Assembly: GCA_035548715.1 (NCBI GenBank)
Contig: DASZSL010000045.1
Coordinates: forward strand, 1 to 64,000
Direction of reading: 5' to 3'
Source: Dongiaceae bacterium
GTDB lineage: Bacteria > Pseudomonadota > Alphaproteobacteria > Dongiales > Dongiaceae
Length of the DNA stretch: 64,000 nt
Both the position numbers and the translations under genes were made by a program. The number at the start of each line of letters is the position of its first letter. Position 1 is the stretch's first letter. The notes below the pieces were generated by a model. That model was given only the letters and a program-made list of their open reading frames with translations. It had not been told where the DNA came from and did not search any database. Positions 42,071 through 61,856 of this stretch are shown here, one piece after another.

Positions 42071-42072
42071 GC

Positions 42073-43142: not shown

Positions 43143-43223
43143 GTGAATATCTTAGCGGCTTTCGGCGGGGAGCCGCAACGGCGGGCGCCAAGACCGCAGC
43201 GCCGGCAGGGATAACGGCCAAAG

Positions 43224-43254: not shown

Positions 43255-43274
43255 CCGTGAAGCGGTCCTCCGCC

Positions 43275-44506: not shown

Positions 44507-44535
44507 TTGAACCGGATTCGGGCTTCGCCTATACG
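44507..44535 (+). promoter_or_regulatory. candidate sigma70-type promoter of tRNA-Gly (TTGAAC-17 bp-TATACG)
   Basis: Hexamers and spacing read directly, about 15 bp upstream of the tRNA 5-prime end. Confidence 0.4.
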
Positions 44536-44549
44536 TTTCAGGCGACCCC

Positions 44550-44623
44550 GCGGGTGTAGCTCAATGGTAGAGCAGAAGCTTCCCAAGCTTACGACGGGGG
44601 TTCGATTCCCCTCACCCGCTCCA
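44550..44623 (+). tRNA. tRNA-Gly (anticodon CCC), CCA encoded, U73 discriminator
   Basis: Manual cloverleaf: 7-bp acceptor GCGGGTG/CACCCGC, D-arm GCTC/GAGC, anticodon loop TTCCCAA, T-loop TTCGATT. Confidence 0.85.
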
Positions 44624-44772
44624 ATTTTCCACGATCGGTGCGACGAACCCCCTCGCTGAGGCGAGGCGCCGCGGGCGCGGCGCGGGCGGTTCGATTCCCC
44701 TCACCCGCTCCAATTTTCCACGATCGGTGCGACGAACCCCCTCGCTGAGGCGAGGCGCCGCGGGCGCGGCGC
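44599..44772 (+). repeat. perfect tandem duplication of an 89-bp unit (copy 1 44599-44687 includes the last 25 nt of tRNA-Gly; copy 2 44688-44772)
   Basis: Identical strings GGTTCGATTCCCCTCACCCGCTCCAATTTTCCACGATCGGTGCGACGAACCCCCTCGCTGAGGCGAGGCGCCGCGGGCGCGGCGC at both positions. Confidence 0.9.
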
Positions 44773-45197
44773 TAGGTCTCTCCCGCCCCGCCGGATTCCG
44801 ACGCGAGGAGTCCCTTCGCGCGGCATGCTTCCGCCGCCTGGCGGATGTATTCCCCGGTCTCCGGCGCATCGTACCGGGCGGAGATCTCCTGGCTGAGCGC
44901 CAGCAGCTCGTAATAGGTCGCGCGGTAGGGCCGCAGCTTCTCATAGGTCTGCAGCAGCACGTCGTTCGGAATCGCCGTCAGCTCGGCGGCGCGGCGGAAG
45001 TTGCGGGCGAGCTGCGGATAGCCTTCGCTTTCGGCACGCTCCGCCTGGGCAAGCAGCGTCTCCCGGCTGATGGTCAAGTCGTCGGGCGCCAGCCCGCCGG
45101 CACGCAGCCGTCCGAGGGTGAGGTCGTCGGCGGCAGCGCGCGAGACCTTGCGGCGCGGATCCGGCTCGTCGAGTGGCGGCCGGCGGTCATTCTTCAT
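44772..45197 (-). CDS. B12-dependent diol/glycerol dehydratase small (gamma) subunit
   Basis: Size and position directly downstream of the large-subunit gene with an 11-bp overlap; similarity to PduE/DhaB3 family. Confidence 0.6.
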   Translation of the reverse strand: MKNDRRPPLDEPDPRRKVSRAAADDLTLGRLRAGGLAPDDLTISRETLLAQAERAESEGYPQLARNFRRAAELTAIPNDVLLQTYEKLRPYRATYYELLALSQEISARYDAPETGEYIRQAAEACRAKGLLASESGGAGET

Positions 45198-47424
45198 AGA
45201 CGGCTTCCATGTTCGAGGCCGCCCGCTCGCTCTCCACACGGGCGACCTCTCGCTTGTGCATCAGGGAGGCGTGCACGATCAGGCGCAGCCGCGCGGTGGT
45301 GTCCACCTTGACAGGCACCGGCGCCGGCGGGCGCCGCAGGGCGTGGCAGGCCGCGTTCGATCCGATCTGCCGGTAGGCCTCGCGCGACAGCAGCGGCGCC
45401 TGGGCGAAGAGCTCCAGGTTGTTGAGCGGCGCCAAGCCCTTGCGCTGGATCACCGCGGTGCCTTTCGACTGCAGGCCGATGGCGATGCCGGAGCCGCTGA
45501 GCCGCGCGCCCTGGTGGCCGATCATGCCGCAATCCGCCGTGTCGAAGACCTTGACGATCCGCGCCTTGATTCCGTGCTGCTCGATCCCGGCGACGATCTC
45601 GCGCAGCACCTCGCCGTGCGAGAGTCCGCTCAAGGTCGTGTCGAGCGCCGAGGCGAAGGCCGGACCCACGGCGACCACGACCTCGGGTGCGGTGCCGGCC
45701 GCGGCGGGTCCCGTATCGCGCAACGTCACCCCGGCATTGCCGCTGGAGATCGGCACCATCTCCGCGGCCGAACGGGCCTGCGGGATCGCCGCAATCCGGC
45801 GCCATTCCTCCCCCTCGAGCCGGAAGCCGGTGCCCGGCCCGAGATAGTCGTTGCCGTCGGTGAAGGCGCTTTCAGTCGTGCCGTCCGACGCCAGGATCGC
45901 CGCCGGCTGCAGGTACTCGCCGGCGACGCGTACGCGCTGCATGCCGAGGATGTTCTCCGCGACGTCCTGGAATCCCGCCTCGTCGAGCACCCGAACCACG
46001 TCGAGCGCCGTCAGCGGTCCGTCCAGCAGGTCGTCCGCCGCGGCGAGGTCCTGGACAAGGTCGCGCTCGGGCATATCGTCGGACGAATAAGCGGAGGTTG
46101 CAGCGTCGATCTCCGTGTCGCCGATCGCCGGAAAACCGAGGCCGCGGAAGATCGCCTGCATCGCCAGAGCAGCACGGCGCCGGACGGCGACGACCTGCGG
46201 CTCGGTCACCGGCTCGATGCCGGCATCGACGCGCATGTCGCGCTGGATGACCATCCAGTCGTCGAGATCGTCGGCGTCGAAGTTGCCGCCGCCGAACATA
46301 TTGTCCCGGCGCGGCATCGAGCTGTAGCCCGAGGTGATGAAGTCGGTCCCAGGGAGGAACTGGAGCATCAGCTTCGCCGCCTTGCGCATGTCCGAGTGCG
46401 AGGAAAGCGCGTCGTTTCCCGAGGCGACCTCCAGCCCAAGCGATGCCGCTATCAGGTTCTCGGCCAGGACCGCGCGCACACCGCCCGGCAGGGCCGACGG
46501 CAGCGCGATGCAGGAGATCGAGCCGTTCTGCACGCCTTGCGCGCCGGCCCCTTTCGCGAGCAGCAGGCACCGCGCTTCCAGATAGAGCATCGACCGCCCC
46601 GCCTCATAGCCCATCAGGGTCTCAGCCCCAGTGCCCGACGTGAAGCGGATCTTGATCCCGCGCGAGGCGTAGGCGGAGGCCAGGAAGCCCTTGGACCACG
46701 GCGTATCGTCGCCGTCTGCCATAGCCTCGTCGGTGCCGTAGACCGAGAGCGTCTCGGCATAGCTGGTGAGACCCTTGAGGCCGAGCCTGAGGTTGAGCGC
46801 CTCCTCCACCGCGCATTGGGTCAGCACGCCGCCGCGCGGCGTCTGCGCGCCGACCAGGATCGCCAGCGCGTTGATCGGCGCCATCCGGGCGACGCGGCAG
46901 GTGGTCTCGAGCTCGTCGAAGCCTCGGAGCGCGGCCTCGGCGGCGTCCGCCGCCATCAATGCGGGGTTCTCGCGCCAGTTGGTGACGTGGGCCTGGTTGC
47001 CGGGGCGACGGCGGGCGCGCATCTTCTGCAGCGCCATCATCATCTCGACGACGTTCAAGTGCGAGACGACGGAACAGAGCTTGGCCGGCGTGCAGCCCGA
47101 AAGCAGGTCGACCAGCCGTTTGCGCGGCATGTGGATGTCCACCAGCATCCGCGCCAGCTCCAGCGAGGGCATCGCCATGGCCTCTGCCGCGGTCGCGGTG
47201 TTGACCGCATACCGGGCGATGTAGCGGTCGATGACGTCGAAATCGGCTTCCGGGCAGCCGTCGATCTCGACCACGCGGCCGTCCTCCAGCCGGATGCTCG
47301 GCACCGGGTCGTTCGGGCTGTCCATGACGACCAATCCGAGCCCGGGATCCTCCTGCACGAAGGTGTCGCGGTTGATCGCCTGCCGCTCGCGCTTCTCGAA
47401 CCGTTTGGACCGTAGCATCCGCAA
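45187..47424 (-). CDS. B12-dependent diol/glycerol dehydratase, fused large (alpha) plus medium (beta) subunits
   Basis: N-terminus MRSKRFE...NRD.F, internal blocks VSHLNVVEMMMALQKMRARR, TQCAVEEA, GDDTPWSKGFLAS, SCIALPS, FITSGYS match PduC/DhaB1; the C-terminal about 190 aa is beta-subunit-like. Confidence 0.85.
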   Translation of the reverse strand: MRMLRSKRFEKRERQAINRDTFVQEDPGLGLVVMDSPNDPVPSIRLEDGRVVEIDGCPEADFDVIDRYIARYAVNTATAAEAMAMPSLELARMLVDIHMPRKRLVDLLSGCTPAKLCSVVSHLNVVEMMMALQKMRARRRPGNQAHVTNWRENPALMAADAAEAALRGFDELETTCRVARMAPINALAILVGAQTPRGGVLTQCAVEEALNLRLGLKGLTSYAETLSVYGTDEAMADGDDTPWSKGFLASAYASRGIKIRFTSGTGAETLMGYEAGRSMLYLEARCLLLAKGAGAQGVQNGSISCIALPSALPGGVRAVLAENLIAASLGLEVASGNDALSSHSDMRKAAKLMLQFLPGTDFITSGYSSMPRRDNMFGGGNFDADDLDDWMVIQRDMRVDAGIEPVTEPQVVAVRRRAALAMQAIFRGLGFPAIGDTEIDAATSAYSSDDMPERDLVQDLAAADDLLDGPLTALDVVRVLDEAGFQDVAENILGMQRVRVAGEYLQPAAILASDGTTESAFTDGNDYLGPGTGFRLEGEEWRRIAAIPQARSAAEMVPISSGNAGVTLRDTGPAAAGTAPEVVVAVGPAFASALDTTLSGLSHGEVLREIVAGIEQHGIKARIVKVFDTADCGMIGHQGARLSGSGIAIGLQSKGTAVIQRKGLAPLNNLELFAQAPLLSREAYRQIGSNAACHALRRPPAPVPVKVDTTARLRLIVHASLMHKREVARVESERAASNMEAVYEE

Positions 47425-47537
47425 TCCTCCAGGCGGTTCGCGCGCGCCTTGCGCCGTCCCCGAGCGGCCAGGCTAGCGTCCCGGCGGAGCTTCGGCAACA
47501 CGGCGCCGGACGACTGCAGGCGGCGGACCGGCGAAGC

Positions 47538-48290
47538 TCAATACGTGGCGCGGCCGCCGGAAAGGTCGAAGGTCGCCGCGGTGGTGAACGAGTTCTCCTG
47601 GCTCGCCAGCCAGCAGATCATGGACGCGGCCTCCTCGAGCTCGAGCATCCGGCCGCGGGGAATCTTCGACAGGATCATCGCCAGGAAGTCGGGCGCCTGC
47701 CCCATGGCACCGACCGTCCTGGCGACCGCGGGGGTCACGCAATTGACGGCGATGTCGTAGCCGGCCAGTTCCTTGCCCAGCGACTTGGTCAGCGCGATTA
47801 CCGCCGCCTTCATGGCGCTGTAGGCCGGCGCCTTGGGGTTGCCTTCCTTGCCGGCCACCGAGCTCAGGTTAACGATGCGGCCGTAATTGGCTGCGATCAT
47901 GTGGGGAACCACCGCCCGACAGCAGTGGAAGGTCCCGATCAGGCCGACATCGATCACCGTCCGGAACGCTTCCGGCGGGTATTCCCAGGTCGGCGCGTTC
48001 GGTCCGACGACGGCTGCGTTGTTGACCAGCACGTCGATCCGGCCGAAGCGGGCGACGGTCGCGGCGGTGGCGTCCTCGACCGCCGGGAGGCTGGCGATGT
48101 CCGCCGCGACGCCGTGCGTGTCACCGCCGGCCGCGAGCTCGGCAAGCGTCCGCTCGAGCAGCGTGGCGTCGTGGTCCCAGATGCTGACCTTCGCCCCCGA
48201 TTCCAGCATCCGGCGCACCACCGCCAGGCCGATGCCCTGCGCGCCGCCGGTGACGACGGCGACCCGGCCGCCCAGGTCGTACCTGTTCAC
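47538..48290 (-). CDS. SDR family oxidoreductase
   Basis: TGGAQGIG cofactor motif, NNAA, YSAMK active site. Confidence 0.85.
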   Translation of the reverse strand: MNRYDLGGRVAVVTGGAQGIGLAVVRRMLESGAKVSIWDHDATLLERTLAELAAGGDTHGVAADIASLPAVEDATAATVARFGRIDVLVNNAAVVGPNAPTWEYPPEAFRTVIDVGLIGTFHCCRAVVPHMIAANYGRIVNLSSVAGKEGNPKAPAYSAMKAAVIALTKSLGKELAGYDIAVNCVTPAVARTVGAMGQAPDFLAMILSKIPRGRMLELEEAASMICWLASQENSFTTAATFDLSGGRATY

Positions 48291-48335
48291 GCCGGGCTCC
48301 GATCGGATGTCGACGACGACGCTTCGTCCGCCCTG

Positions 48336-49787
48336 CTACGCACGGCTCCTCTTCCCGGCATGAGCCCCGGCGCGACGGCCGAACACCAGTCCGCGCAGCA
48401 CCGAGGTCGCGCCGACATAGATGCCGTAGATGATGCCGACCGTCTCGCCCGCCGCGTAGAGGCCGCGGATCACCGAGCCGCTGGCACTGACCACCTGCGA
48501 ATCCCTGGTCACCTTCAGGCCGCCATAGGTGAATGTCGCCGAGGTGATGATCGGATAGGCGCCGAACGGCGCGACCGAGATCGAGCGGGCGAAATTCGAC
48601 TTCTCCGGCACGATTCCCTTGGTCGACCGGTGGTCGAACTTGGAGACGTCGATCGGACCGTCGGTGCAGGCGCGGTTGAAGGTCTCGACCGTCTGCATGA
48701 AGCCGTTCACCGAGATCCCCAGCTTGCGGGCCAGCTCGGGCAGCGTATCGGCGACGATCGCCGGCTGATCGGAGCGGATGGCGATCCGCCAGTTCGGCAC
48801 CTCGTCGATCTTCGCGTCGTAGACGAAGAACCCGATGCCGCCGGGCTGCCGGTTGATGGCGACGCAGGGCTCCTCGGCGTAGTAGTCGTACTCGCTGTGC
48901 GCCTCGTTGAAGAAGCGCTCGCCGTTCTTGTTGACGACGATGCCGAGCGGGAACGCGTTGATCAGCGCTTCCGAGGCGCTGGAGCGCGGGTCGATCGGCT
49001 GGCGATGGACGTCGGCGAAGTCGCCGGCCGGCGCCGCCCCGGCGTCGAGCGCCATGCGGATGCCTTCGCCCTTGTTGTACCATCCGCCGCGCGCCACCGG
49101 CCGCATGTAGCGCGCCTGCGATCCGATATACTTGGCGAGCATCTCGGGATTGCCTTCGAAGCCGCCGCAGGCAAGCACCACGCTCTTGGCATCGATGATG
49201 ACGGAGTCGCCCGCGGCGTCCACCGCCTTCAGGCCGGTCACGCGGTTGTCCTCGTCCTGCAATAGGGCGGTCGCCGTGGTCTCGTAGAGGATCTGCGCGC
49301 CCTTCTTCTCGATCGTCGGGCAGAGCGTCTCGACGAGCGCCAGGCCGCCGCCGTAGAGGCCGAGATGCTTCACCGGCGGAAGATAGGGATACATGCTGGG
49401 ATGGGTCTTGACGCCGTAGCTCTCCAGCCACTTCAGCCCGTCGGGAATGCCTTCCATGAAGGTCGTCAGCAGCTCCGGATCGACGAAGGCCAGGGCCTTC
49501 ACCAGCGCGGGCCAGGTCTCGTAGTCCTTGGCGGTCGCCCGGATGAATTCGGGGAAGATGTAGTAGCCGGAATTGTCGAGATAACGCTTCTCGAAGTCGT
49601 CCCAGACGGTGAGATCGTCCTTCACCCGCAGCAGCGCCTCGGTCCAGCGCGTATTGCCGCCGCGATCCTCTTGCGGCGCGCGCTCGAGCACGATCACCTT
49701 GGCGTTCTGCTCCAAGGCCGAGAGCGCCGCCGACAGACCGGCAACGCCGCAGCCCACCACCACAACATCACATTGAAGTCGCCGCAT
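48336..49787 (-). CDS. FAD-dependent oxidoreductase (fumarate reductase/succinate dehydrogenase flavoprotein-like; TcuA/KstD-type)
   Basis: DVVVVGCGVAGLSAA dinucleotide-binding motif; C-terminal GLYAAGE. Confidence 0.75.
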   Translation of the reverse strand: MRRLQCDVVVVGCGVAGLSAALSALEQNAKVIVLERAPQEDRGGNTRWTEALLRVKDDLTVWDDFEKRYLDNSGYYIFPEFIRATAKDYETWPALVKALAFVDPELLTTFMEGIPDGLKWLESYGVKTHPSMYPYLPPVKHLGLYGGGLALVETLCPTIEKKGAQILYETTATALLQDEDNRVTGLKAVDAAGDSVIIDAKSVVLACGGFEGNPEMLAKYIGSQARYMRPVARGGWYNKGEGIRMALDAGAAPAGDFADVHRQPIDPRSSASEALINAFPLGIVVNKNGERFFNEAHSEYDYYAEEPCVAINRQPGGIGFFVYDAKIDEVPNWRIAIRSDQPAIVADTLPELARKLGISVNGFMQTVETFNRACTDGPIDVSKFDHRSTKGIVPEKSNFARSISVAPFGAYPIITSATFTYGGLKVTRDSQVVSASGSVIRGLYAAGETVGIIYGIYVGATSVLRGLVFGRRAGAHAGKRSRA

Positions 49788-49936
49788 CTTTCCTCCAACC
49801 GATCACCGGCCATTTGGCCATGCTTCTTGCGGGCGCCGCCGCCCGTTTCGTCATCTTTGTCGCTCTAGACACGCCTTTGCAACTTCGCAAGCCGTCGTTC
49901 GGAACGCCGCGCTCGCGTTTGGCGATACGCGGGCGA

Positions 49937-51025
49937 CTATTGCGGGAGTCGCCTGATGGCGGATACCACGGCCTCTCCCATTTCCTTGGTGCCGACCTGG
50001 CGCGTGCCGGCCTCGTAGATGTCCGCCGTGCGGTATCCGTCGGCCAGCACGGCGCGCACGCCGGATTCAATTTTCCTGGCCTCCGGTTCCATTCCGAAGG
50101 AGAACCGGAGCATCATCGCCGCCGAGAGGACCGCAGCCAGCGGGTTGGCGATGTCCTTGCCGGCGATGTCGGGGGCCGTGCCGTGCACCGGCTCGTACAG
50201 GCCCTTGCTGCCATAGCCGACCGAGGCCGAGGGCAGCATGCCGATCGATCCGCTGAGCATCGCCGCGGCGTCGGACAGGATGTCGCCGAAGACGTTGCCG
50301 GTCACGATGACGTCGAACTGCAGCGGATTGCGGATCAGCATCATCACCGCGGCATCGACGTAGAGATGGGTCAGCGCGACGTCCGGATATTCCTTGCCGA
50401 CGCGGGTCACCACCTCGCGCCACAGCGCCATGGTTTCGAGCACATTGGCCTTGTCGACGGAGCAGACCTTCTTCCGGCGCCTGCGAGCGGCCCGGAACGC
50501 GACATGGGCGATGCGCTCGATCTCCGATTCGGAGTAGCGCATGGTGTTGAAGCCGGTTCGCTCGTTCTTCTCGTTCCGCTCGACGCCGCGCGGCTGGCCG
50601 AAATAGAGATCTCCGTTCAGCTCGCGCAGGATGATGAGGTCGAGGCCCTCGATCACCTTCGGCTTCAGGGTCGAGGCCCCGATCAGCTCGGGGAACATCT
50701 GCACCGGCCGGAAGTTGGCGAACAGCTCCAGCTCCTTGCGCAGGCGGAGCAGCGCCGCGCCAGCGCCCTCGGCGGGCGGGCGGTTCTCGTCCTCGGGCAC
50801 GCCGGTGCCGCCGAGCAGGATGGCGTCGGCGGCCCGCGCGATCTCCAGCGTCCGCGCCGGCAGCGGGTCGTCGCCGGCGTCGATCGCGTCGCCGCCGATC
50901 GTCGCCTCGTTCAGCTCGTAGTCGGTCCCGCCGTCGAGCACCGCCTTGAGGGCGTTGACGGCCTGCGCGGTCACCTCCTTGCCGATGCCATCGCCCGGTA
51001 GAACCGCTATCCGCAATTTTGGCAC
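49937..51025 (-). CDS. leuB: 3-isopropylmalate dehydrogenase (or close paralog of the decarboxylating beta-hydroxyacid dehydrogenase family)
   Basis: [14 protein letters not shown]-terminus, NLFGDILSD-type motif (NVFGDILSD). Confidence 0.8.
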
Positions 51026-51046
51026 TTCATTTCCTTCTTGCTTGCT

Positions 51047-51622
51047 TCACGACGCCGGACGTTGCCGCTCGAAGGCGGCGATCTCGGGCATCCGGGAAAG
51101 CGTGTAGTCGAGCTCGTCGAGCCCGTTGATCAGGCAGTCCTTCGCGAACGAGTCGATCGCGAAGCCGTGGATGACGCCGTCGGGCAGCGTCACTGTCTGC
51201 GCCGGCAGGTCGATGCGGATCGCGAGTTCGGGCCGGCCCGCGAGCTGCCCCAGAAGGCGCGCATTGAGCGCCGGCGGCATCGCGATCGGCAGGAAACCAT
51301 TCTTCAGCGCGTTGCCAAAGAAGATGTCGCCGAAGCTCGGTGCCAGCGCCGCGCGGAAACCGTGGTCGTAGAGCGCCCAGACCGCGTTCTCGCGGGATGA
51401 GCCGCAGGCGAAGTTCGGGCCGGCCACCACGATCCGCGCATCGCGCCCCGGCGGGCGGTTGAGCGGGAAGTCCGGCCTCTGCCGCAGGTCGTGGAACAGA
51501 TAGCGGCCGAGGCTGCCGTCCCGCGGCTTCTGCAGGAAGCGGCCGGGAATGATCTGGTCGGTATCGATGTTGGCGGCAGGCAGCGCGAGCGCCGGCGCCT
51601 CCAGGACGGTGAAACGATCCAC
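51047..51622 (-). CDS. leuD: 3-isopropylmalate dehydratase small subunit
   Basis: NIDTDQIIP motif, GPNFGCGSSRE-type (GPNFACGSSRE). Confidence 0.8.
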   Translation of the reverse strand: MDRFTVLEAPALALPAANIDTDQIIPGRFLQKPRDGSLGRYLFHDLRQRPDFPLNRPPGRDARIVVAGPNFACGSSRENAVWALYDHGFRAALAPSFGDIFFGNALKNGFLPIAMPPALNARLLGQLAGRPELAIRIDLPAQTVTLPDGVIHGFAIDSFAKDCLINGLDELDYTLSRMPEIAAFERQRPAS

Positions 51623-51623
51623 G

Positions 51624-53054
51624 CTATCGACGCTCCATCATCGTGCGCACGTCGGCGAGCCGGCCTTCGATCGCCGCCGCGGCGGCGCTCATCGGGCTCA
51701 TGAGATGGGTCCGCGCGCCCGGCCCCTGGCGGCCCACGAAGTTGCGGTTGGAAGTCGAGGCGCAGCGCTGGCCCGGAGGAACGAGATCGCCGTTGGTGCC
51801 GAGACAGAGCGAGCATCCCGCCTCGTGCCAGGCGAAGCCGGCATCCTTGAACGTGCGGTCCAGGCCCTCGGCCTCGGCCTGGAGCTTCACCTGGGTCGAG
51901 CCCGGCACCACCCAGGCCTCGACCTTCGGGTGGACCTTGCGCCCGGCGACCACGACGGCGGCGCCCCGCAAGTCCTCGATCCGGCTGTTGGTGCAGGAGC
52001 CGATGAAGACCCGGTCGATGGAGATTTCGCCCATGGCCATGCCGGGGACGAGCCCCATGTAGCCCAGCGCGCCGCGGGCCCGCTCGCGCTGCGCGGGGTC
52101 CGTCATCGTATCGGGGTCCGGGACGACTCCGTCCACCGGCGCTACATCCTGCGGGCTGGTGCCCCAGGTCACCATGGGCGCCAGCCCGGAAATGTCGATC
52201 CGAACCTCGCGGTCGAAGGCTGCGCCGGGATCGCTCGGCAGCGCGCGCCATTGTGCGACCGCCGCGTCCCAGGCGGCGCCGCTCGGCGCGAACGGGCGGT
52301 CCTTCAGATAGGCGAAGGTGGTGTCGTCCGGCGCGACCAACCCGGCGCGCGCGCCGGCCTCGATCGACATGTTGCAGACCGTCAGCCGGCCCTCGACCGA
52401 GAGCGCGGCGATGGCCGGACCGGCATATTCGATGACGTGGCCGATGGCGCCCGAGGCGCCGATCCGGCCGATGACGGCGAGGATGATGTCCTTCGCGGTG
52501 ACGCCGGGGCCGCGCTGCCCGTCGATCCAGATCCGCATCGACTTCGGGCGGCGCTGCCAGATCGCCTGGCAGGCGAGAATCTGTGCCGCCTCGGTCATGC
52601 CGACGCCGAATGCCAGCGCGCCGAGCGCGCCATGGGTCGAGGTGTGGCTGTCGGCGCAAACCAGCACGATGCCGGGCTGCGTGATCCCCTGCTCCGGGCC
52701 GACGACGTGCACGATGCCCTGCCGGGGATCGCCGAGCGGGAAAAGCTGGATGCCGTGCTCCTCGACGTCGCGCTTCATCGACATTACCATCGCCCGCTTC
52801 TCGGGATCAGCGATGCTGCCGAGGTCGCGGCTGGTCGTGGGGATGTAGTGATCGGGTACGGCGGTGCTCCGCTCGGGGTGCCGCACACGCAGGCCGCGCT
52901 CGCGCAGCACGTCGAAGGCCGGCGCGTACCCGTCATGGATCAGAAGGTGGTCGACGTAGACCAGCACCTGCCCGTCCGACCTCGTCGCGACACTATGCCG
53001 CGACCAGATCTTGTCGAACATGCTCTGCGCCCGTTCAGGATTGCCCGCGCTCAT
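51624..53054 (-). CDS. leuC: 3-isopropylmalate dehydratase large subunit (aconitase family)
   Basis: Aconitase-family Fe-S ligands (CADSHT, GSCTNSR, CLGTN). Confidence 0.85.
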   Translation of the reverse strand: MSAGNPERAQSMFDKIWSRHSVATRSDGQVLVYVDHLLIHDGYAPAFDVLRERGLRVRHPERSTAVPDHYIPTTSRDLGSIADPEKRAMVMSMKRDVEEHGIQLFPLGDPRQGIVHVVGPEQGITQPGIVLVCADSHTSTHGALGALAFGVGMTEAAQILACQAIWQRRPKSMRIWIDGQRGPGVTAKDIILAVIGRIGASGAIGHVIEYAGPAIAALSVEGRLTVCNMSIEAGARAGLVAPDDTTFAYLKDRPFAPSGAAWDAAVAQWRALPSDPGAAFDREVRIDISGLAPMVTWGTSPQDVAPVDGVVPDPDTMTDPAQRERARGALGYMGLVPGMAMGEISIDRVFIGSCTNSRIEDLRGAAVVVAGRKVHPKVEAWVVPGSTQVKLQAEAEGLDRTFKDAGFAWHEAGCSLCLGTNGDLVPPGQRCASTSNRNFVGRQGPGARTHLMSPMSAAAAAIEGRLADVRTMMERR

Positions 53055-53246
53055 TCGGTGCCGACCCAGCCTGCTTTCAGGATCTCGCGCGACCGCTCCC
53101 GCGTCGGCGCGCCCAGACAGTGGGTGCAGAATAGTGAGGCGCTAAAGCAGCCCCAAATCGTGGTTTAGAATGCTAACATCGCCGTTCACGACGGAGGGCG
53201 CAGGTCCGTCCGCGGCAACGACCAAGGAGCTCGTCGGAGTAACCAT

Positions 53247-54161
53247 ATGCGTTTCGATCTCTATTCGCTGAGCCTGTTCGTCACGGTCTGCGAGCAGCAA
53301 AGCATCGCCCGCGCCGCGGAGATGCACAACATCGCCGCCTCGGCCGTCAGCAAGCGGATCTCGGACCTGGAGAAGCTGGTCAAGGAGCCGCTGTTCTACC
53401 GGCGCCAGAGCGGCCTGGAGCTGACGCCGGTGGCGCAGTCGCTGCTCCATCACGCCCGTATCGTTCTGCGCGACCTGATGCAGATGGAGCGCGAACTGAC
53501 CGATCATTCGACCGGACTCCGCGGCCAAGTCCGCATTCAGACCAGCCTGTCGATGATCGTGCAGCACCTGCCCGGCGACCTCAGCGAGTTCCTGGCGGAA
53601 AACCCGGCGGTCCGCGTGGACATCGAGGAGAGCACGAGTCAGCAGGTCGTCCGCTCGGTGAGCGAGAACGCCGCCGACATCGGCATCTTCGGCGGCAGCC
53701 TCTCCGCCCCCGGCCTGCGCATCGCGCACTATCGAGACGACAAGCTGGTCGCCATCATGCCGCCCGGGCACGTCCTGTCCGGACGTCAGTCGGTGCGCTT
53801 CGCCGAGCTCGCGGAGCACGACCTGATCGCCACGCTGAAGGGCAGCTTCTTGGACTCGCTGGTGCTGCGCGCGGCGGCCGATGTCGGCCAGCCGCTGAAG
53901 CTGCGCGTGCGCGTCAACGGCTTCGAGACCGCCGCCCGCATGGTCGAGGCCGGGCTCGGCATCGCCTTCGTCCCGGAGAACTGCGCCGAGCGATACGTCA
54001 AGGTGTTCCGCATCGCCTCCGTGCCGCTCGACGAAGCGTGGGCGACCAGGCACTGGCGCCTGTGCACCCGCGACACCGACGACCTGCCGCTCCCGGTCAA
54101 GGTCCTGGTGAAGTACCTGACCCGGCTCCCCAGCGGGCTTCCCCGGGCGGAACCGCGCTGA
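53247..54161 (+). CDS. LysR family transcriptional regulator, divergent from leuC
   Basis: LysR HTH SLFVTVCEQQSIARAAEMHNIAASAVSKRI plus substrate-binding domain. Confidence 0.85.
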   Translation: MRFDLYSLSLFVTVCEQQSIARAAEMHNIAASAVSKRISDLEKLVKEPLFYRRQSGLELTPVAQSLLHHARIVLRDLMQMERELTDHSTGLRGQVRIQTSLSMIVQHLPGDLSEFLAENPAVRVDIEESTSQQVVRSVSENAADIGIFGGSLSAPGLRIAHYRDDKLVAIMPPGHVLSGRQSVRFAELAEHDLIATLKGSFLDSLVLRAAADVGQPLKLRVRVNGFETAARMVEAGLGIAFVPENCAERYVKVFRIASVPLDEAWATRHWRLCTRDTDDLPLPVKVLVKYLTRLPSGLPRAEPR

Positions 54162-54174
54162 CCGCGCGCCGCAG

Positions 54175-55224
54175 TTAGTTCGACATCCCGCCCGCGACCT
54201 TCAGCTCGGCCTTGCCGTCCGATTGCGGGCCGCCGAGCTCCTGGTCGCCGGCGCCGGCCTTGGCGTTCATGATGCGCGCCTTGCGCAGCACGCCGAGCCT
54301 CGCGCCGGTGACCGCGAGCACCAGGATGGTGCCGTTGAAGATCGGCTGCACGTAGGCGTCCGCGCCGAGCATGAAGAGGCCGGTGGTGCCCGCGCCGACG
54401 AGATAGACCGCGATGAAGGTGCCCCACACGTTGTAGAAGCCGGGCCTGAACGCGGTCGCACCGAGGAAGGCGGCGGCGAACGCCGGCAGCAGCAGCGCCT
54501 GCGCCGCGGTCGGATGGCCGGCGCCGACCCGGGCGACCTGCAGGCAGCCGGCGAACGCGGCCACCGTGCTGGAGACCACGAACGAGCCCGCGACGTAGCG
54601 CTTCACGTTGATCCCGATGATGCGGGCGGCCTCGGGCGAGCCGCCGATCGCGTAGAGCCGCCGCCCGATCGGGCGCAGCGTCAGGATGAACCAGAGCACG
54701 ATGCCGGCGATCAACGCATAGAGGAAGGGTAGCGGGATGAAGCCGAACAGGCGGGTCTGGCCGAGCAGCTGGAACGACTTGGAGATGCCCTGGAAGATCA
54801 CCTCGCCGTTGGAATAGAGCAGCACGATGCCCTGGATCGTGCTGCCGACGCCGAGGCTGACGATCAGCGAATTGAGCCCGACGTAACCGACCAGGATGCC
54901 CATCAGCAGGCCGATCGCGGCGCCGCAGCCGGTGACGATCAGCACGACCAGCGGCCAGGGCAGGTCGTCCCGCGACAGCAGGCCGGCGGTGAGCATGACG
55001 CCGAGCGTGGCGACGAAGCCGACCGAGACGTCGAACTGCCCGACGATCAGCGGAACCATGACTCCGAGCGCCACCAGCGTCAGGATCGCGTTGTCGCTCA
55101 TGATCGAACCGGCATTGGCGCGGGTCGGGAAGAACTCGGGCTTCATCGCCGAGAAGAACACGATGAGGAGCAGAAGGACGACGACGAGGCCGTATTTTCC
55201 CACAAGCGTCTTGGCGAGCTGCAT
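54175..55224 (-). CDS. sugar ABC transporter permease (RbsC/AraH-type)
   Basis: 10-TM permease of the ribose/xylose type. Confidence 0.8.
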   Translation of the reverse strand: MQLAKTLVGKYGLVVVLLLLIVFFSAMKPEFFPTRANAGSIMSDNAILTLVALGVMVPLIVGQFDVSVGFVATLGVMLTAGLLSRDDLPWPLVVLIVTGCGAAIGLLMGILVGYVGLNSLIVSLGVGSTIQGIVLLYSNGEVIFQGISKSFQLLGQTRLFGFIPLPFLYALIAGIVLWFILTLRPIGRRLYAIGGSPEAARIIGINVKRYVAGSFVVSSTVAAFAGCLQVARVGAGHPTAAQALLLPAFAAAFLGATAFRPGFYNVWGTFIAVYLVGAGTTGLFMLGADAYVQPIFNGTILVLAVTGARLGVLRKARIMNAKAGAGDQELGGPQSDGKAELKVAGGMSN

Positions 55225-55243
55225 CGCTCAACTTCCCTGATGT

Positions 55244-56749
55244 TCAATGTCCATAGACGGCGTGGCTGAGCGCCGCCGGCGTGATCTCGCCGTTCGCCAA
55301 CGCACTGGTCAGCCGGCCGCGGGTCATGACCAGCACGCGGTCGCAGTATCCAGCAAGGATGTCCAGGTCGGAATCGAGCACCAACGCGCCCATGTTCCGC
55401 TCGGCGACGAGCTGGCGGATGGTGGCGAATATCTCGGTGCGGGCGCCGATGTCGATGCCCTGGGTCGGCTCGTCGAGGATCAGCATGCGCGGATTGCGCA
55501 GCATCCACTTGCCCAGCGAGACCTTCTGCTGGTTGCCGCCCGACAGCGTGTCGATCGCGAACTCGATGCCCGCGGCCTTGACCCGGTAGTCGCGCACGAT
55601 GCCCTCGGCGATCTCGCGGACCCGCCCGGCGGAGAGCGCGAAGCCCTTCAGGGCCGAGGCGAGATTCGCGAGCACCAGGTTCTCGCTCACCGGAAGTCCG
55701 GAGAAGACGCCGTTGCGGCGCTCCTGTGGCACGTAGGCGATGCCGAGATCGACGCGGGCGCCGGTGCTCACTGGCGTGATGTCGCGCCCGTCGAACACGA
55801 TCCGTCCGGCCGTCGATTTCTGCAGCCCGAAGATCAGGCGGCCAAGCTCCGACCGTCCGGATCCGACCAGCCCGGCGATGCCCACCACCTCGCCCGGCGC
55901 GACCGCCAAGGTCACGTCGCGCAGCCGGACGCCGCTGACGTTCTCCACGGCGAGCAGCGGCTGGCCGACCCAGTCCCCCGCGGCCTCGTGCCGGATCCCC
56001 TCCTCGATGTCGCGGCCGACGATCAGCCGGACCAGCGTCCGCCGGTCGAGGCCGGCGATCGGACCGTGATGCACCAGGTCGCCGTCGCGCAGCACGGTGA
56101 CCTCGTCGGCGATCGCCAGGACCTCGTCGAGGCGATGGGAGATGTAGAGTATCGCGACGCCGCGGCGCGTCAGCCCGCGCACCGTGCGCAGCAGGCGGTC
56201 GGCCTCGCTGACCGGGAGCCGGGCGGTCGGCTCGTCCAGCACCAGGACGCCGCCGGATGCGGGCAGGCTGGCGATCGCCCGGGCGATCGCTACCGTGGTC
56301 TGCTCGGCGGGCCCGAGCGAGCCGACCGGCTGCCGCACGTCGCAGACGATATCGTATTCGGCGAGCAGCTCCTGCGCCCGCCGATTCTCCTCGGGCCACG
56401 AGATCGCGCCGTGCCACATCTTGAAACTGCGGGTCAGCGCCAGGTTCTCGGTCACCGAAAGCGTCGGCACCAGGCCCAGGTCCTGGTGCACGAAGGCGAT
56501 CGCGTTCGCGCCGCTGTCGTGGGAATAGAAAATCTCTCCGCCGTCGGCCTGGTGGTAGCCGGCGAGGATCTTGACCAGGGTGGACTTTCCGGAGCCGTTC
56601 GCGCCGAGCAGGGCGTGGACACGCCCTGCTCGGAACGCGACGTCGACACCCCGAAGGGCATGCGTGGCACCGAAGTATTTGTGCAGCCCCCGCACCTCGA
56701 GCGCGGGTTTCTCCGCTGGCGCAGGGGCCGCCATTACATCAAGCCCCAC
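55244..56749 (-). CDS. sugar ABC transporter ATP-binding protein (tandem NBDs, RbsA-like)
   Basis: Two NBDs; Walker A GANGSGKST in the first. Confidence 0.85.
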   Translation of the reverse strand: MGLDVMAAPAPAEKPALEVRGLHKYFGATHALRGVDVAFRAGRVHALLGANGSGKSTLVKILAGYHQADGGEIFYSHDSGANAIAFVHQDLGLVPTLSVTENLALTRSFKMWHGAISWPEENRRAQELLAEYDIVCDVRQPVGSLGPAEQTTVAIARAIASLPASGGVLVLDEPTARLPVSEADRLLRTVRGLTRRGVAILYISHRLDEVLAIADEVTVLRDGDLVHHGPIAGLDRRTLVRLIVGRDIEEGIRHEAAGDWVGQPLLAVENVSGVRLRDVTLAVAPGEVVGIAGLVGSGRSELGRLIFGLQKSTAGRIVFDGRDITPVSTGARVDLGIAYVPQERRNGVFSGLPVSENLVLANLASALKGFALSAGRVREIAEGIVRDYRVKAAGIEFAIDTLSGGNQQKVSLGKWMLRNPRMLILDEPTQGIDIGARTEIFATIRQLVAERNMGALVLDSDLDILAGYCDRVLVMTRGRLTSALANGEITPAALSHAVYGH

Positions 56750-57834
56750 AGTTTCTTGTAGGCGGTCTTGAAGTCATAGTCGCCTTGCCAACCGTGGTTG
56801 AACTCATAGTCCGTGAGTTGGTTGATGTTGTCCTTGTCGAACAGCCGGATCGGGATGTTCTGCGCGACGGCCGGCTGGCCATTGAACATCCGGTTGAGGT
56901 TGTCGATCAAGGCATAACCTTCCCACTCCCGCGGATCGCAGGCGCACACCACCTGGATGACGCCGTCGCGGATCAGCTGGTTGTTCTCGCCGTTGCAGTC
57001 AAAACCGGCGCCGCGGACGTTCTCGCCGAGACCGGCCGCCTTCAGCGAGCGCGAGACGCGGCTCATGCAGGCGTCGAAGCACCAGACCCAGTTGGTGCTG
57101 GGATCGGCCTGGACCGCTGCCGCAGCCAGCGCCGCCGGCTGCGTGTCGATCACCGCAAAAGTCCAGGGTTTCACCGTCATCTTGCAGTCCGGGCACTTGG
57201 ACGGATCCGAGAGCACCTCGTTGGTGCCGAGGTACTGGCCGTGCTCGATCTCATAGAGGTCGGTATTCTTCAGCAGGAAGGCGTTGATCTTCCCGTTCGA
57301 CTTCCAGATCATGTAGTTGGCGATCGCCCTGCCGGTCCCCACGTAATCGTGCGAAACGTCCGGGATGGTGTCCGGCGTGTTCTTCATGTCGCCCAGCGTG
57401 ATGAGCTGGATCTTCGCGTCGAGCGCGCGCTTGACCGCGTCGGCGACCACCGGCGTGTCGACGAAGTCCAGCGCGATGGCGTCATACTTTGCGTCGATCG
57501 CCGCGTTGAACGCCTTCGACTGCTCCGCCGGATCGCCCTTGCCGTCGAAGATGTCGACGGTCCAGCCCAGCAGCTTCCCCGCTTCCGCGATCGCGTTGGC
57601 CGGGCGCGACGAGCCTTCCGCCGCCTGACAGCAGGCGATCACGGCGACGCGCTTGCCCGTGACCGGCTTGGGCGCCGAGGTTGGACCGTGCCAAGTCGCC
57701 TTCTCGTTCATCAAAGCCTGGAGGCTGTCCTTGGCCGCCTGGGCCTGCGGCGACAGATCCTCAGCCCTGGCGCCGCCGGCGCAGAACAGCGCCGCCGCCG
57801 CGCACATCAGGAGACCGGCGAGGCCGCGCCTCAT
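56734..57834 (-). CDS. sugar ABC transporter periplasmic substrate-binding protein (type I PBP)
   Basis: Signal peptide MRRGLAGLLMCAAAALFCAGGARA plus a periplasmic-binding-protein-like fold. Confidence 0.7.
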   Translation of the reverse strand: MRRGLAGLLMCAAAALFCAGGARAEDLSPQAQAAKDSLQALMNEKATWHGPTSAPKPVTGKRVAVIACCQAAEGSSRPANAIAEAGKLLGWTVDIFDGKGDPAEQSKAFNAAIDAKYDAIALDFVDTPVVADAVKRALDAKIQLITLGDMKNTPDTIPDVSHDYVGTGRAIANYMIWKSNGKINAFLLKNTDLYEIEHGQYLGTNEVLSDPSKCPDCKMTVKPWTFAVIDTQPAALAAAAVQADPSTNWVWCFDACMSRVSRSLKAAGLGENVRGAGFDCNGENNQLIRDGVIQVVCACDPREWEGYALIDNLNRMFNGQPAVAQNIPIRLFDKDNINQLTDYEFNHGWQGDYDFKTAYKKLWGLM

Positions 57835-57944
57835 CCATCCTCCCGAGCTTTCCTTGATAGTCCCCGATACGATCATCTCTGTTTCCTCCTCGTTTTTGAG
57901 ACGTTGCTCCTAGAACTCCGAGAACCTGCGGGCCAAGCCTCCGG

Positions 57945-59462
57945 TCACCGCCCGATGAATGGATTGGGCACGTCGGTGATGGTCGAGATCCAGACCGCCT
58001 TCACCTGCAGGTATTCGTGGATCATCGCCTGGCCGCCTTCGCGGCCGATGCCGCTCTGCTTGTAGCCGCCGAACGGCGCCATGAAGCTGCTGGCCCGGTA
58101 GGTGTTGACCCAGACCTGACCGGACTCGAGCTTCTCCGAGACCCGGATCGCGCGGGCGATGCTCTCGGTCCACAGGCCGGCGGCGAGCCCGTACGGCGAA
58201 TCGTTGGCGATCGCGATCGCCTCCTCCTCGTCGTCGAACGGAATCACCGAGAGCACCGGGCCGAAGATCTCTTCGCGGGCCACCCGCATCTGATTGTTGA
58301 CGCCGGTGAAGATCGTCGGCTCGACGAACCAGCCATCCTTCAGCATCGGATCCGCCGGTCGCGCCCCGCCGACCACCGCCGTCGCCCCTTCCTTGCGGGC
58401 GATGTCGATGTAGGAGAGGATCTTGTCGAGCTGCGGCAGATTGCAGATCGGGCCGATCTGGGTGGTCTCCAGCATCGGGTTGCCGAGCTTGGCTCCGCCG
58501 CCGAGCCGCACCAGCATGTCGACCACCTGGTCGTGAACGCTCCGCTGCACGAGCAGGCGCGAGCCGGCAATGCAAGTCTGACCGGCCGCGGCGAAGATAC
58601 CGGACACCGCGCCCTTGGCAGCGTTCTCCAGGTTGGCGTCGGCGAAGATGATGTTGGCCGACTTGCCGCCGAGTTCCAGCGTGACCCGCTTCAAGCTCTT
58701 CGCCGCGAGTCCGTAGATCACCTTGCCGGTGTTCTCCGATCCGGTGAAGGCGACCTTGCCGACCAGCGGGTGCTCGACCAGCGGCCCGCCGACCTCGCCG
58801 CCGAACCCGGTCACCACGTTGATCACGCCCGGCGGCACGCCGGCCGCTTCGGCGACAGCGCAGAACTCCAGGATCGAGGCCGAGGTAAACTCCGACGGCT
58901 TGATCACGATGGTGTTGCCGGCGGCCAAGGCTGGCGCCAGCTTCCACATCGTGAGGATCAGCGGCGAGTTCCACGGCGACACCGCGGCGACGACGCCGAT
59001 CGGCTCGTGCCGCGTCATGGTCAGGTTGCCCGGCTTGTCGATCGGCAGCACCGCGCCCTCGATCTTGTCCGCGAGGCCGGCAAAATAGTAGAGCCACTCC
59101 GGAAGATACCGGGTCTGGCTCACCATCTCGGCGTACAGCTTGCCATTGTCGCGGACCTCGATCTCCGCCAGCCGCTCGGCCTCGCCGACCAGGGCGTCAG
59201 CCAGCTTGCGCATCACGGCGCCGCGCTGGGTCGCGGTCATGCTGCGCCATTTGCCGCGCGAGGCGCTGTGAGCCGCCTCGACGGCGCGGTTGACGTCGTC
59301 GGCATTGGCCCGCGGGATCAGCGCCCAGGGCTTGCCGGTGTAGGGATTGTAGGATTCAAACACGGCGCCGCTCTGGGCGTCCACCCATTCGCCGCCGATA
59401 TACATCTTGTACGTTTTCAGTGCGCTCTTATCGCGCGGATTGCTGCGCGCTTCTGTGCTCAT
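57945..59462 (-). CDS. NAD(P)-dependent aldehyde dehydrogenase family protein
   Basis: ELGGKSA catalytic Glu region, GQTCIAGSR catalytic Cys, FTGS motif. Confidence 0.9.
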   Translation of the reverse strand: MSTEARSNPRDKSALKTYKMYIGGEWVDAQSGAVFESYNPYTGKPWALIPRANADDVNRAVEAAHSASRGKWRSMTATQRGAVMRKLADALVGEAERLAEIEVRDNGKLYAEMVSQTRYLPEWLYYFAGLADKIEGAVLPIDKPGNLTMTRHEPIGVVAAVSPWNSPLILTMWKLAPALAAGNTIVIKPSEFTSASILEFCAVAEAAGVPPGVINVVTGFGGEVGGPLVEHPLVGKVAFTGSENTGKVIYGLAAKSLKRVTLELGGKSANIIFADANLENAAKGAVSGIFAAAGQTCIAGSRLLVQRSVHDQVVDMLVRLGGGAKLGNPMLETTQIGPICNLPQLDKILSYIDIARKEGATAVVGGARPADPMLKDGWFVEPTIFTGVNNQMRVAREEIFGPVLSVIPFDDEEEAIAIANDSPYGLAAGLWTESIARAIRVSEKLESGQVWVNTYRASSFMAPFGGYKQSGIGREGGQAMIHEYLQVKAVWISTITDVPNPFIGR

Positions 59463-59764
59463 GTAAAAACCTTTCGTTTCGATTGCGCTGGCCCCGCCGG
59501 TCGGACGCATCTCGCCCGGTGCGGGTCACGCGAAGTGGCATATCTCGGCGCTTGCTACGCTTCTTCTTGAGCGCGAGATATACCATCCCCTCCCATATCG
59601 AGGAGCGTAGAAAGAACGGCGTGAAGCCTTAAGTCGTAACTCGGAAAGCACCCATCGCGCTTCGCGATGGGAGCGCGGCGCCGGCCGGAGCGGCGCGCGA
59701 TTGCAAGGGGAGCGAGTGTCGCCGGCGCGGCGGGCAACCGCGACGCGAGGCCGCGGCGCGGCTC

Positions 59765-60589
59765 CTACTCGTACCAGCCGTCGGTAGACTTGCGCAGCCC
59801 TGCGAATTGCTCCGCGTCATGTCCGAACCAGACTTGGCGCCTCGTACGTCGAGACAGCTCCCGGACCCGCTCCAGCGTCCCCCGGTAGCCGAGCGAATCG
59901 TGCATGACGGTCGGCAATTGCACGGGAGGCTCGTAGTTTCCGCTGCAATAGACGGCGTCGGAGGTCAGGATGACGCCCGGCTGCCCGCGCAGCTCGACCT
60001 CGAGCCCGAGCATGCCGTACGAATGGCCGCTGCCCCAGTTGTGGATGGTCACCCGGTCGTTGAGCGTCATCTGGCGCTGTTCGCGTCCCAGCAGGTGCCA
60101 GTCCAGGCCGAGGCGGATCCAATGATCGGTGTCGGCCCAGGTATAGGGCGAATCGCGGGCGCCGGTGGCGTAGTCGCGCAGCGCGGCCGAGAACTCGTCC
60201 TCGTGCACGATGAGCGTGGAATTGCGGAAGAACTCGACGCACCCGGCATGGTCGTTGTGCATATGCGAAAGCACAACGTATCGGATATCATCCGGCCCGA
60301 TGCCGAGCTGCTCCAGGCGCGCGGGAAGCTCGCACTCCGGCGTCCCGGAATGGGCGAAATGCTCCTGAACGAAGGGCGACCAGCGGCCGCCGGGTCCCAT
60401 TGCTTCCGGATTGCAGCCGGTGTCATAGAGAACGCGGCCGTCGGGATGGTCGATATAATAGGCGGAAATCGGAAACTCCATCATCGCGCCGCGCGGCTCC
60501 GGCTCCGCCCGGGAGGCTAGCCGCCAGTTGCGGAAGAACAGCGACCGGTCCATTCGCATTGTGCCGAGGTCGAGAACGTACATCCGCAT
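59765..60589 (-). CDS. MBL-fold metallo-hydrolase (N-acyl-homoserine lactonase/AttM-AhlD-like)
   Basis: HMHNDHAG (HxHxDH) zinc motif; start inferred at MRMYVLDLG. Confidence 0.75.
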   Translation of the reverse strand: MRMYVLDLGTMRMDRSLFFRNWRLASRAEPEPRGAMMEFPISAYYIDHPDGRVLYDTGCNPEAMGPGGRWSPFVQEHFAHSGTPECELPARLEQLGIGPDDIRYVVLSHMHNDHAGCVEFFRNSTLIVHEDEFSAALRDYATGARDSPYTWADTDHWIRLGLDWHLLGREQRQMTLNDRVTIHNWGSGHSYGMLGLEVELRGQPGVILTSDAVYCSGNYEPPVQLPTVMHDSLGYRGTLERVRELSRRTRRQVWFGHDAEQFAGLRKSTDGWYE

Positions 60590-60942
60590 GGCTACCATCG
60601 CGTCCGTGATCTTCGATCGCATCGTCGCGGTGCATGCTAGCTTGCGAGTGGCCGGACGGAAATGCTCAAGCGATGGAAATGACGAGCTTGGCCCGCGGGA
60701 CAGAGCCGGGCCACGTCGGCGACGCCCCCGCTCCCCGCCCGGCTCGTGACCGGCATGCGGCGCGACCACGACGAAATGCGTGACCTCCGTGTTCGCCTAA
60801 CCGGACCGCTTCATGCGACCCACGAGCTCCCGCAAGACCGACATGGCTTCCATGCCGAGACGCCCAAGATCGCCGAGCGCTCGGGCAGGCTTTCTCGAAC
60901 GCCGATGGAAACAAGGGCTCGCGGGAATGCCGGCAGGCGAGC

Positions 60943-60996
60943 TGAGGCGAGCCGCCGCGGGCGCGGCGCGGGCGGTTCGCTTCCCCTCACCCGCGC
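60943..60996 (+). repeat. third, partial copy (51/54 identical) of the tRNA-Gly-associated repeat, matching the copy1/copy2 junction at 44655-44708
   Basis: GCTGAGGCGAGCCGCCGCGGGCGCGGCGCGGGCGGTTCGCTTCCCCTCACCCGC versus GCTGAGGCGAGGCGCCGCGGGCGCGGCGCGGGCGGTTCGATTCCCCTCACCCGC. Confidence 0.85.
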
Positions 60997-61015
60997 CCCG
61001 CGTCCCGGAAGAAAG

Positions 61016-61855: not shown

Positions 61856-61856
61856 C

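Follow-up and report, generated by a model that had tools for sequence, protein, structure and literature searches.

We analyzed a 64,000-nt stretch of DNA from a Dongiaceae bacterium (assembly GCA_035548715.1, contig DASZSL010000045.1, positions 1–64,000; “the window” in what follows; G+C = 68.3%), and in particular a set of short direct repeats that contain the 3' end of a tRNA gene and bracket a 16.2-kb block of 13 genes. The window holds a single tRNA gene, an intact tRNA-Gly(CCC) (ARAGORN; Rfam). The repeats are described here in terms of three segments: T comprises the 25 nt at the 3' end of the tRNA (GGTTCGATTCCCCTCACCCGCTCCA), Y the 31 nt after it, and X the 33 nt after Y; X* is a copy of the first 29 nt of X, and T' is a decayed copy of T. 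In these terms, the order along the window is tRNA 5' part-T-Y-X-T-Y-X*, gene block, X-T', 21 nt, and the stop codon of an ATP-binding cassette (ABC) permease gene. The individual features, some of which are named after the type of attachment (att) site that they resemble, are as follows:

44550–44623, plus strand: tRNA-Gly(CCC), intact (ARAGORN; Rfam RF00005, 68.9 bits); its last 25 nt (44599–44623) are segment T, an attL-type core.
44624–44654, plus strand: Y copy 1, the 31 nt directly 3' of the tRNA, ATTTTCCACGATCGGTGCGACGAACCCCCTC (only two Y copies in the window, 0 expected; not downstream of this tRNA in 39 relatives).
44655–44687, plus strand: X copy 1, the 33-nt non-tRNA segment, GCTGAGGCGAGGCGCCGCGGGCGCGGCGC plus GGGC (repeat families, pattern search, and direct comparison).
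44688–44712, plus strand: T copy 2, a perfect duplicate of the 25 nt at the tRNA 3' end (Tandem Repeats Finder, TRF; direct comparison).
44713–44743, plus strand: Y copy 2 (pattern search).
44744–44772, plus strand: X*, ending at the block boundary (pattern search; direct comparison).
44655–44743, plus strand: the X-T-Y junction, attP-like (TRF; direct comparison).
44655–44711, plus strand: left member of an in-register 57-nt direct-repeat pair (X-T) with its partner at 60941–60997 (54/57 identity, period 16,286 nt).
60941–60973, plus strand: X copy 3, with one mismatch (c at 60952) (pattern search; direct comparison).
60974–60997, plus strand: T', a decayed fragment of the tRNA 3' end, attR-type (direct comparison; the same in a near-identical assembly, L003).

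On direct comparison, 44599–44683 and 44688–44772 matched at all 85 nt, at a period of 89, and TRF reported a period-89 array of 2.0 copies at 44595–44772. GGGC forms a 4-nt spacer between the two proximal copies, and copy 2 is followed by TAGG, not GGGC. The perfect 89-bp tandem given in a preliminary description of this DNA, made from the sequence alone, thus stands as regards identity and period in the window, whereas an independent metagenome-assembled genome (MAG) carries one unit only (see below). The distal copy reported there, a 51/54 match at 60943–60996 that reproduces the junction of the two units, was confirmed by direct comparison and extends to 54/57 over 60941–60997 when aligned with 44655–44711.

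The distal copy consists of X followed by T'. It is a circular permutation of T-Y-X and is out of register with the tRNA end; the repeat goes beyond a plain tRNA tail in that the 33-nt non-tRNA segment X is fused to the tRNA 3' end. An X-T junction permuted in this way can occur only in a tandem array or on a circle, and corresponds to the attP configuration. In addition, X* (44744–44772) and the distal X (60941–60969) directly bracket the gene block with 28/29 identity. T' spans the T-loop to the acceptor stem in direct orientation and, with three substitutions, agrees with the tRNA 3' end at 22/25 positions; the A58C change and the loss of the discriminator base and CCA mark it as a decayed fragment rather than a gene. 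The stop codon of the ABC permease gene (61016–61855, minus strand) follows 21 nt away. No further copies of X, Y, or X-T were found in the 64 kb by pattern searches allowing three mismatches, and none were expected from shuffled sequences. The repeats are real and far beyond chance.

Folding energies of X and Y equalled those of shuffled sequences (z between −0.41 and +0.70), no terminator-like site was found at X or Y, and no Rfam family other than tRNA matched there; a reading of these segments as a terminator or a structured RNA was rejected. Neither terminal inverted repeats nor target-site duplications were seen in the sequence at the repeats.

The bracketed block (44773–60940, minus strand except for a divergent LysR gene) comprises 13 genes, assigned using Pfam and NCBIfam and with gene calls in the assemblies L003, L088, and L092:

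44772–45197, minus strand: small subunit of a B12-type diol/glycerol dehydratase (Pfam).
45187–47418, minus strand: fused large and medium dehydratase subunits (Pfam).
47538–48290, minus strand: short-chain dehydrogenase/reductase (SDR) (Pfam).
48336–49787, minus strand: TcuA-like flavoprotein, an FAD dehydrogenase (NCBIfam, 348 bits, just below the cut-off of 369).
49937–51025, minus strand: LeuB-type (NCBIfam equivalog, 454 bits, above 353).
51047–51622, minus strand: LeuD-type (NCBIfam equivalog, 165 bits, above 116).
51624–53054, minus strand: LeuC-type (NCBIfam equivalog, 631 bits, above 560).
53247–54161, plus strand: LysR regulator, divergent (Pfam).
54175–55224, minus strand: ribose-type ABC permease (Pfam).
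55244–56749, minus strand: ribose-type ABC ATPase (Pfam).
56734–57876, minus strand: ribose-type ABC binding protein (Pfam).
57945–59510, minus strand: aldehyde dehydrogenase (ALDH) (Pfam).
59765–60622, minus strand: AhlS-like lactonase (Pfam).

The dehydratase small-subunit gene had been described as starting where the second repeat copy ends. Being on the minus strand, it ends there instead, and C44772, with which X* ends, supplies the final base of its TAG stop codon. That the block lacks an integrase was borne out by Pfam searches of all 13 genes, which revealed no integrase, excisionase, transposase, or transfer gene. No integrase or integrase pseudogene was detected anywhere in the window using tblastn with six integrases that occupy this tRNA site in relatives (best E = 0.33).

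The block was also thought to be a self-contained catabolic gene set, a description that did not hold. The nearest relatives of the dehydratase pair (87, 85, 78, and 78% identical) stand by themselves as two-gene modules in four unrelated neighborhoods, the nearest lactonase other than the window's own is 70% identical, and the context examined for a 60% identical lactonase homologue is unrelated as well. Conserved synteny of the block, as judged by these two end genes, was therefore rejected. Based on these sequence relationships, the block is a mosaic and no conserved unit, composed of a roaming dehydratase module, the LeuBCD-type and TcuA-like genes, and the sugar ABC transporter with the ALDH and lactonase genes. 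The module of fused large and medium plus small subunits stands alone in at least five unrelated neighborhoods (the window, L093, L096, L106, and L107; 78–87% identity), no reactivase gene is among the listed neighbors of any of these modules, and the C-terminal tails of the small subunits diverge after ...AKGLLA in the three that were compared (window, L093, and L096). The TcuA-like gene adjoins the genes scoring as LeuB, LeuD, and LeuC (48336–53054, minus strand) and the divergent LysR gene. The members of this set could be paralogs that feed alkyl-succinate or alkyl-maleate into LeuCD/LeuB chemistry, rather than housekeeping leucine genes.

The composition of the block resembles that of its surroundings. 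The G+C content is 0.677 in the block and 0.692 in the left flank, with values at third codon positions (GC3) of 0.897 and 0.901, respectively, and the codon-usage distance between the two is 0.319, compared with a null of 0.268 ± 0.042. Tetranucleotide profiles of the block and the 44-kb left flank correlate with r = 0.987–0.989, no different from the correlation within the left flank itself. Hence, neither codon usage nor GC3 nor the 4-mer profile sets the inside apart from the left flank. A plasmid origin was also considered and rejected; megablast of 42700–47500 against PLSDB yielded only matches to the tRNA and distant matches to the dehydratase.

The surroundings of the tRNA were compared with 80 ApaG-centered loci from other species. 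tRNA-Gly(CCC) lies near ApaG, on the same side, in 39 of the 80 loci, usually with OmpA in between, and the DNA 3' of the tRNA is different in every one of these 39 relatives. Neither a block gene nor the permease flank follows the tRNA in any of them (0.4–9.7 kb inspected), so that an empty site could not be identified by synteny in these species. A Phage_integrase gene lies directly after the tRNA in L012 (Dongia sedimenti), L030, L045, L070, and L058, and six of the 39 relatives carry an integrase or an apparent integrase remnant at this position. In an uncultured Dongia MAG (L020:400–4960), a perfect 46-nt direct repeat of tRNA-Gly(CCC), extending from the anticodon arm to CCA, is present in two copies that are 4.4 kb apart. 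The repeat encloses an ORF that, read by eye, resembles an integrase N-terminus and stops after 17 codons (MAVIEKRGKFRYRVKIR*), in addition to several ORFs without an assigned function. This locus looks like a decaying islet at tRNA-Gly(CCC).

A near-identical strain differs at the same tRNA. Contig L001 (GCA_964644515.1, CAZXWL010000009.1) is 99.7% identical to the window over 41829–44589, departs from it inside the tRNA, and runs into an integrase N-terminus (Arm-DNA-bind_3, E = 3e-11); the contig stops after 269 nt of the integrase gene. With an integrase at this tRNA in L001 and the block in the window, strains of the population therefore differ in what they carry here. On these comparisons, tRNA-Gly(CCC) is an integration hot spot in Dongiaceae and in a near-identical strain. 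At the junction itself (L001:1–520), the tRNA-Gly lacks 20 internal nt (TACGACGGGGGTTCGATTCC), and unrelated DNA and the beginning of a P4-like integrase come after it; the break falls where the 46-nt att core of L020 begins. Either a defective attL or a deletion specific to this strain could explain the junction. A search for the full-length integrase with the 89-aa fragment returned only pieces of 81–156 aa with 48–62% identity. In another relative (Dongia sp. ZZ2_ZZA25_bin.18, L010:28–56), ~390 nt separate OmpA from a tRNA-Gly 3' end that is truncated by the end of the contig and points the opposite way from that of every other relative, which may reflect a local inversion at the hot spot. 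Position 44568, in the D-loop of the tRNA-Gly, is polymorphic, with T in the window and L001 and C in L088.

The block is present, at 99.8% identity and with the same X-T' copy, in a 99-kb contig (L003/L088) of the MAG that also contains L001. In this contig, one T-Y-X* unit follows the tRNA, compared with two in the window; the repeat thus shows a one-unit versus two-unit polymorphism. Variation at the repeats was further assessed using Logan contigs (k = 31) from five sequencing runs, in which adjacent contigs within a run overlap by 30 nt and mark graph junctions. The ends of these contigs fall exactly on repeat edges: contigs on the dehydratase side (L089–L091) end at 44743, those on the permease side (L004–L007) at 60953 or 60941, and those on the lactonase side (L100–L102) at 60924, 60970, or 60982. 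Base 60952 is a g/c strain polymorphism. A genome with a single unit alone predicts no breaks; therefore, a Y-X-G junction must exist in the samples.

We simulated unitig ends at k = 31 for tandem, single-unit, and block-less alleles, each with g or c at 60952, considering all combinations of up to three of these six alleles. For SRR12170516, the only fit combined the single-unit allele containing the block with a block-less allele, tRNA-T-Y-X-T'-permease. SRR12170510 fitted only combinations that include the block-less allele, and SRR12170511 was compatible with tandem alleles among several fits. The sequence predicted for the block-less allele, in which X carries g and T' carries C58, is the sequence required by the contig ends. 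The simulations point indirectly to a presence/absence polymorphism of the block that is bounded by the repeats. As for an empty tRNA site, then, the 39 other species have unrelated content after the tRNA, none with the permease flank, and the block-less allele is deduced from contig termini in the runs. The JGI metagenome 3300056388 has a permease contig that extends 448 nt past the permease stop codon and a lactonase contig that begins 200 nt before the lactonase gene. Collinearity of both contigs with the window would imply a 255-nt overlap between them; a permease contig from a block-less allele would end near window position 44282, close to the end of L088 (44297).

We consider the locus to be probably (with a probability of about 0.55) a fossil array of att sites left by elements that ended in Y and X and targeted the part of tRNA-Gly(CCC) that runs from the T-loop to the 3' end, the cargo being an integrase-less island that resembles a cis-mobilizable element (CIME). 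In this scenario, members of one family of integrative elements, with Y as the left end and X as the right end, would have used the hot spot 3' of the tRNA, recombining with the T-loop-to-3'-end part of the gene. The locus would then read, from left to right, as attL (tRNA 5' part-T-Y), a 64-bp Y-X vestige of two element ends, an attP-like X-T-Y, X*, the 16.2-kb cargo, X, and a decayed attR (X-T'). As to the probable order of events, the cargo would have lost all integration genes, have been reshuffled, and have come to match the host in composition. The repeats would still serve as recombination substrates. Loss of one 89-bp unit would yield the single-unit allele, and exchange between X* and X, or between X-T and X-T', would yield the predicted block-less allele. 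Two features of the repeats support an island with the integrase-mediated origin that we infer. T' extends from the T-loop to the acceptor stem, in the manner of displaced tRNA fragments at island ends; moreover, X precedes T both at the internal junction and in the distal copy, as a shared element-end motif would. The hot-spot status of the tRNA, the integrase N-terminus beside it in L001, the lack of an integrase in the block, a cargo that is no conserved unit, and the structural polymorphism at the repeats also speak for it.

Several observations weigh against this explanation. Site-specific recombination is only inferred, because no integrase, excisionase, or transfer gene is present. The position of X* just inside the left end is not accounted for, and no fold signal is evident in X or Y (z about 0). 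Composition, codon usage, and 4-mer profile of the block are indistinguishable from those of the host. The LeuB, LeuC, and LeuD genes pass their equivalog cut-offs and would be core genes if they are the sole copies in the genome. The junction in L001 differs, with a 20-nt tRNA deletion and no Y, and its variant therefore seems to belong to another element. Finally, no assembled empty site was found, and the block-less allele depends on contig-end logic, a limited set of alleles, and an idealized unitig model, with Logan contigs not being pure unitigs. The preliminary description had offered an old, domesticated island and a dispersed tRNA-derived element as the two options. The island is the better one, given the hot spot, the absence of an integrase, and the block-less allele suggested by the contig ends, although the host-like composition and the LeuBCD-type genes fit it less well. 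Likewise, the claim that a direct repeat of the tRNA 3' end is an att footprint holds insofar as T' is a true displaced fragment, in direct orientation, of a hot-spot tRNA; the in-register pair, however, is X-T and X-T', and there is a 29-nt X repeat that directly flanks the block.

In an alternative account, no integrase ever acted. A local (T-Y-X)n array of 89-bp units could have arisen by slippage or unequal crossing-over, and the block could later have been inserted or moved into one X by RecA-type (Campbell) recombination through the 29-nt X, leaving X* and X at its sides and a stranded X-T' that then decayed. We regard this course of events as unlikely. It accounts for the 28/29 identical X that directly flanks the block, for circularly permuted units, as in any tandem array, for the native composition of the block, and for the lack of mobility genes; the LeuBCD-scoring genes suggest chromosomal DNA, and a one-unit versus two-unit polymorphism is typical of tandem-repeat instability. 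Yet it gives no reason for the array to begin precisely in the T-loop of a tRNA that serves as an integrase target in relatives and in a conspecific strain. Furthermore, 29 bp is a poor substrate for RecA, there is no other X copy in the window that could have served as a source, and the three changes in the 24 nt of T', as opposed to identical proximal units, fit an old displaced fragment better than a recent array. The perfect duplication, but not the distal copy, might instead be an artefact of assembly, the true genome having one unit. The window apparently derives from a MAG (its proteins HVY99692.1, HVY99703.1, and HVY99704.1 match the dehydratase, lactonase, and permease, respectively), the independent 99.8% identical assembly (L088) has a single unit, and the contig ends of SRR12170516 fit alleles without the X-T(A58) junction. 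Even so, we find an artefact improbable. Since X-T' carries C58, a de Bruijn assembler cannot create X-GGTTCG-A58 unless reads contain that junction; also, the dehydratase-side Logan contigs of three runs stop at 44743, which requires the Y-X-G junction, and SRR12170511 is compatible with tandem alleles.

That the 89-bp unit or X-T is a dispersed, multicopy, tRNA-derived repeat of the repetitive extragenic palindrome (REP), miniature inverted-repeat transposable element (MITE), or short interspersed nuclear element (SINE) type, unrelated to insertion of the block, we hold to be very improbable. X is GC-rich and contains short palindromes, both X copies lie, on the minus strand, just downstream of operon ends, and the inspected part of the genome amounts to 64 kb plus about 8 kb of the 99.8% identical MAG. 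Against such a repeat, neither the window nor the extra 8 kb of L003 nor the 80 related loci contain further copies of X, Y, or X-T, and there are no terminal inverted repeats, target duplications, or fold signal. Exact-pattern scans gave 0 matches in JGI metagenome contigs (X; T'-flank) and in IMG/VR (X; the T-Y junction; the start of the L001 integrase). The idea of a dispersed element thus found no evidence in any of these data. At the other extreme, the 89-bp T-Y-X unit might be a minimal att module that is still active, used by an integrase acting in trans (e.g., that of L001) to capture, amplify, and release gene modules, which would make it an integron-like platform on a tRNA 3' end. 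Insertion would then be so precise that the repeat completes the stop codon of the captured dehydratase gene, and the block-present, block-absent, one-unit, and two-unit alleles would be the products. We think this highly doubtful. A true integron cassette array was rejected as the main explanation, there being no integrase in the window, a “cassette” of 13 genes, and no attC-like fold.

The integrase-less island that we favor has several counterparts among known systems. Islands that target tRNA genes leave displaced tRNA 3' fragments at their ends (PMC7192596, PMC9897764), and tandem arrays arise as integration restores the core at both ends, with recombination within such arrays being known as well (PMC7192596). 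As in the islands detected by Islander and TIGER (PMC7192596), an intact tRNA lies at one end of the block and a displaced 3' fragment in direct orientation at the other, and the window shares the tandem array and possible within-array recombination. Unlike those islands, the block lacks the integrase required by Islander, its repeat is permuted and contains 33 nt that do not belong to the tRNA, its composition gives no signal, and the proximal “element” is only 64 bp. By Islander criteria, then, the block has the tRNA at one boundary and the displaced fragment at the other, and it has neither an integrase nor atypical composition, the latter being supportive and not defining.

The closest terms in the literature for the block may be a CIME or a fixed island (PMC5704250, PMC3146451). 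The putative tandem attL-attI/attP-attR arrangement resembles accretion in the ICESt1/ICESt3 family (PMC5704250), and, like CIMEs, the block appears to have kept attL and attR while losing integration and transfer genes, although in the window this is read from sequence only and T' has three substitutions. The cargo differs from CIMEs in that it looks reshuffled and partly housekeeping-like, and the only integrase-bearing neighbor (L001) has a different junction. In Dehalococcoides, islands lie 3' of a small RNA gene, ssrA, with ~20-bp direct repeats of its 3' end, each directly preceded by a conserved element-derived motif that does not match the RNA gene (PMC3146451); this motif would correspond to X. 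There, too, the crossover is in the T-loop, and many islands lack an integration module and have been proposed to be CIMEs or fixed. These islands use a serine recombinase (DsiB) and transfer-messenger RNA, whereas the window has no recombinase, one cargo block, and a 64-bp vestige. The islet in L020 resembles the window in using the same tRNA-Gly(CCC), in its tRNA 3' direct repeat, and in its small cargo and apparent integrase decay; its 46-nt core is perfect and in register, whereas the repeat in the window is a decayed one that begins in the T-loop and has X in front of it. By way of analogy only, the 64-bp Y-X between two T copies may be likened to the solo long terminal repeat (LTR) of retroelements, where recombination between end repeats removes the interior; that is an unrelated class of mobile element with an unrelated mechanism.

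On this reading, the locus would be the ordinary footprint of an old, now immobile island at a tRNA hot spot, of a known kind and involving no new mechanism. Dongiaceae are poorly studied soil Alphaproteobacteria, and the locus would provide an example of tRNA hot spots shaping gene content after loss of the integrase. Within one population, short att-derived repeats may still generate variation in the presence and copy number of a 16-kb metabolic block. Island finders that require an integrase would miss such a block, and assemblies break at these repeats, giving fragmented MAGs.

Beyond T', the right flank (window positions 61000–64000 and L003:1–10000) holds a second sugar-utilization cluster, with a CUT1-type ABC transporter, a MalK-like ATPase, an SDR, and AP_endonuc_2, GFO_IDH_MocA, FAD_binding_4, and GntR genes. 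Its G+C content is 0.62–0.64, compared with 0.68 in the rest of the window, with GC3 still at about 0.91. Elsewhere in the window, C-rich tandem arrays of ~16-nt units occur at 1304–1379 (GTCTTACCCCGCGTCT-like) and 35261–35313 (CCCCGTCTTCCCCAG-like). Both lie in apparent 5' leader or intergenic DNA, and the second stops ~10 nt before an ATG at 35324.

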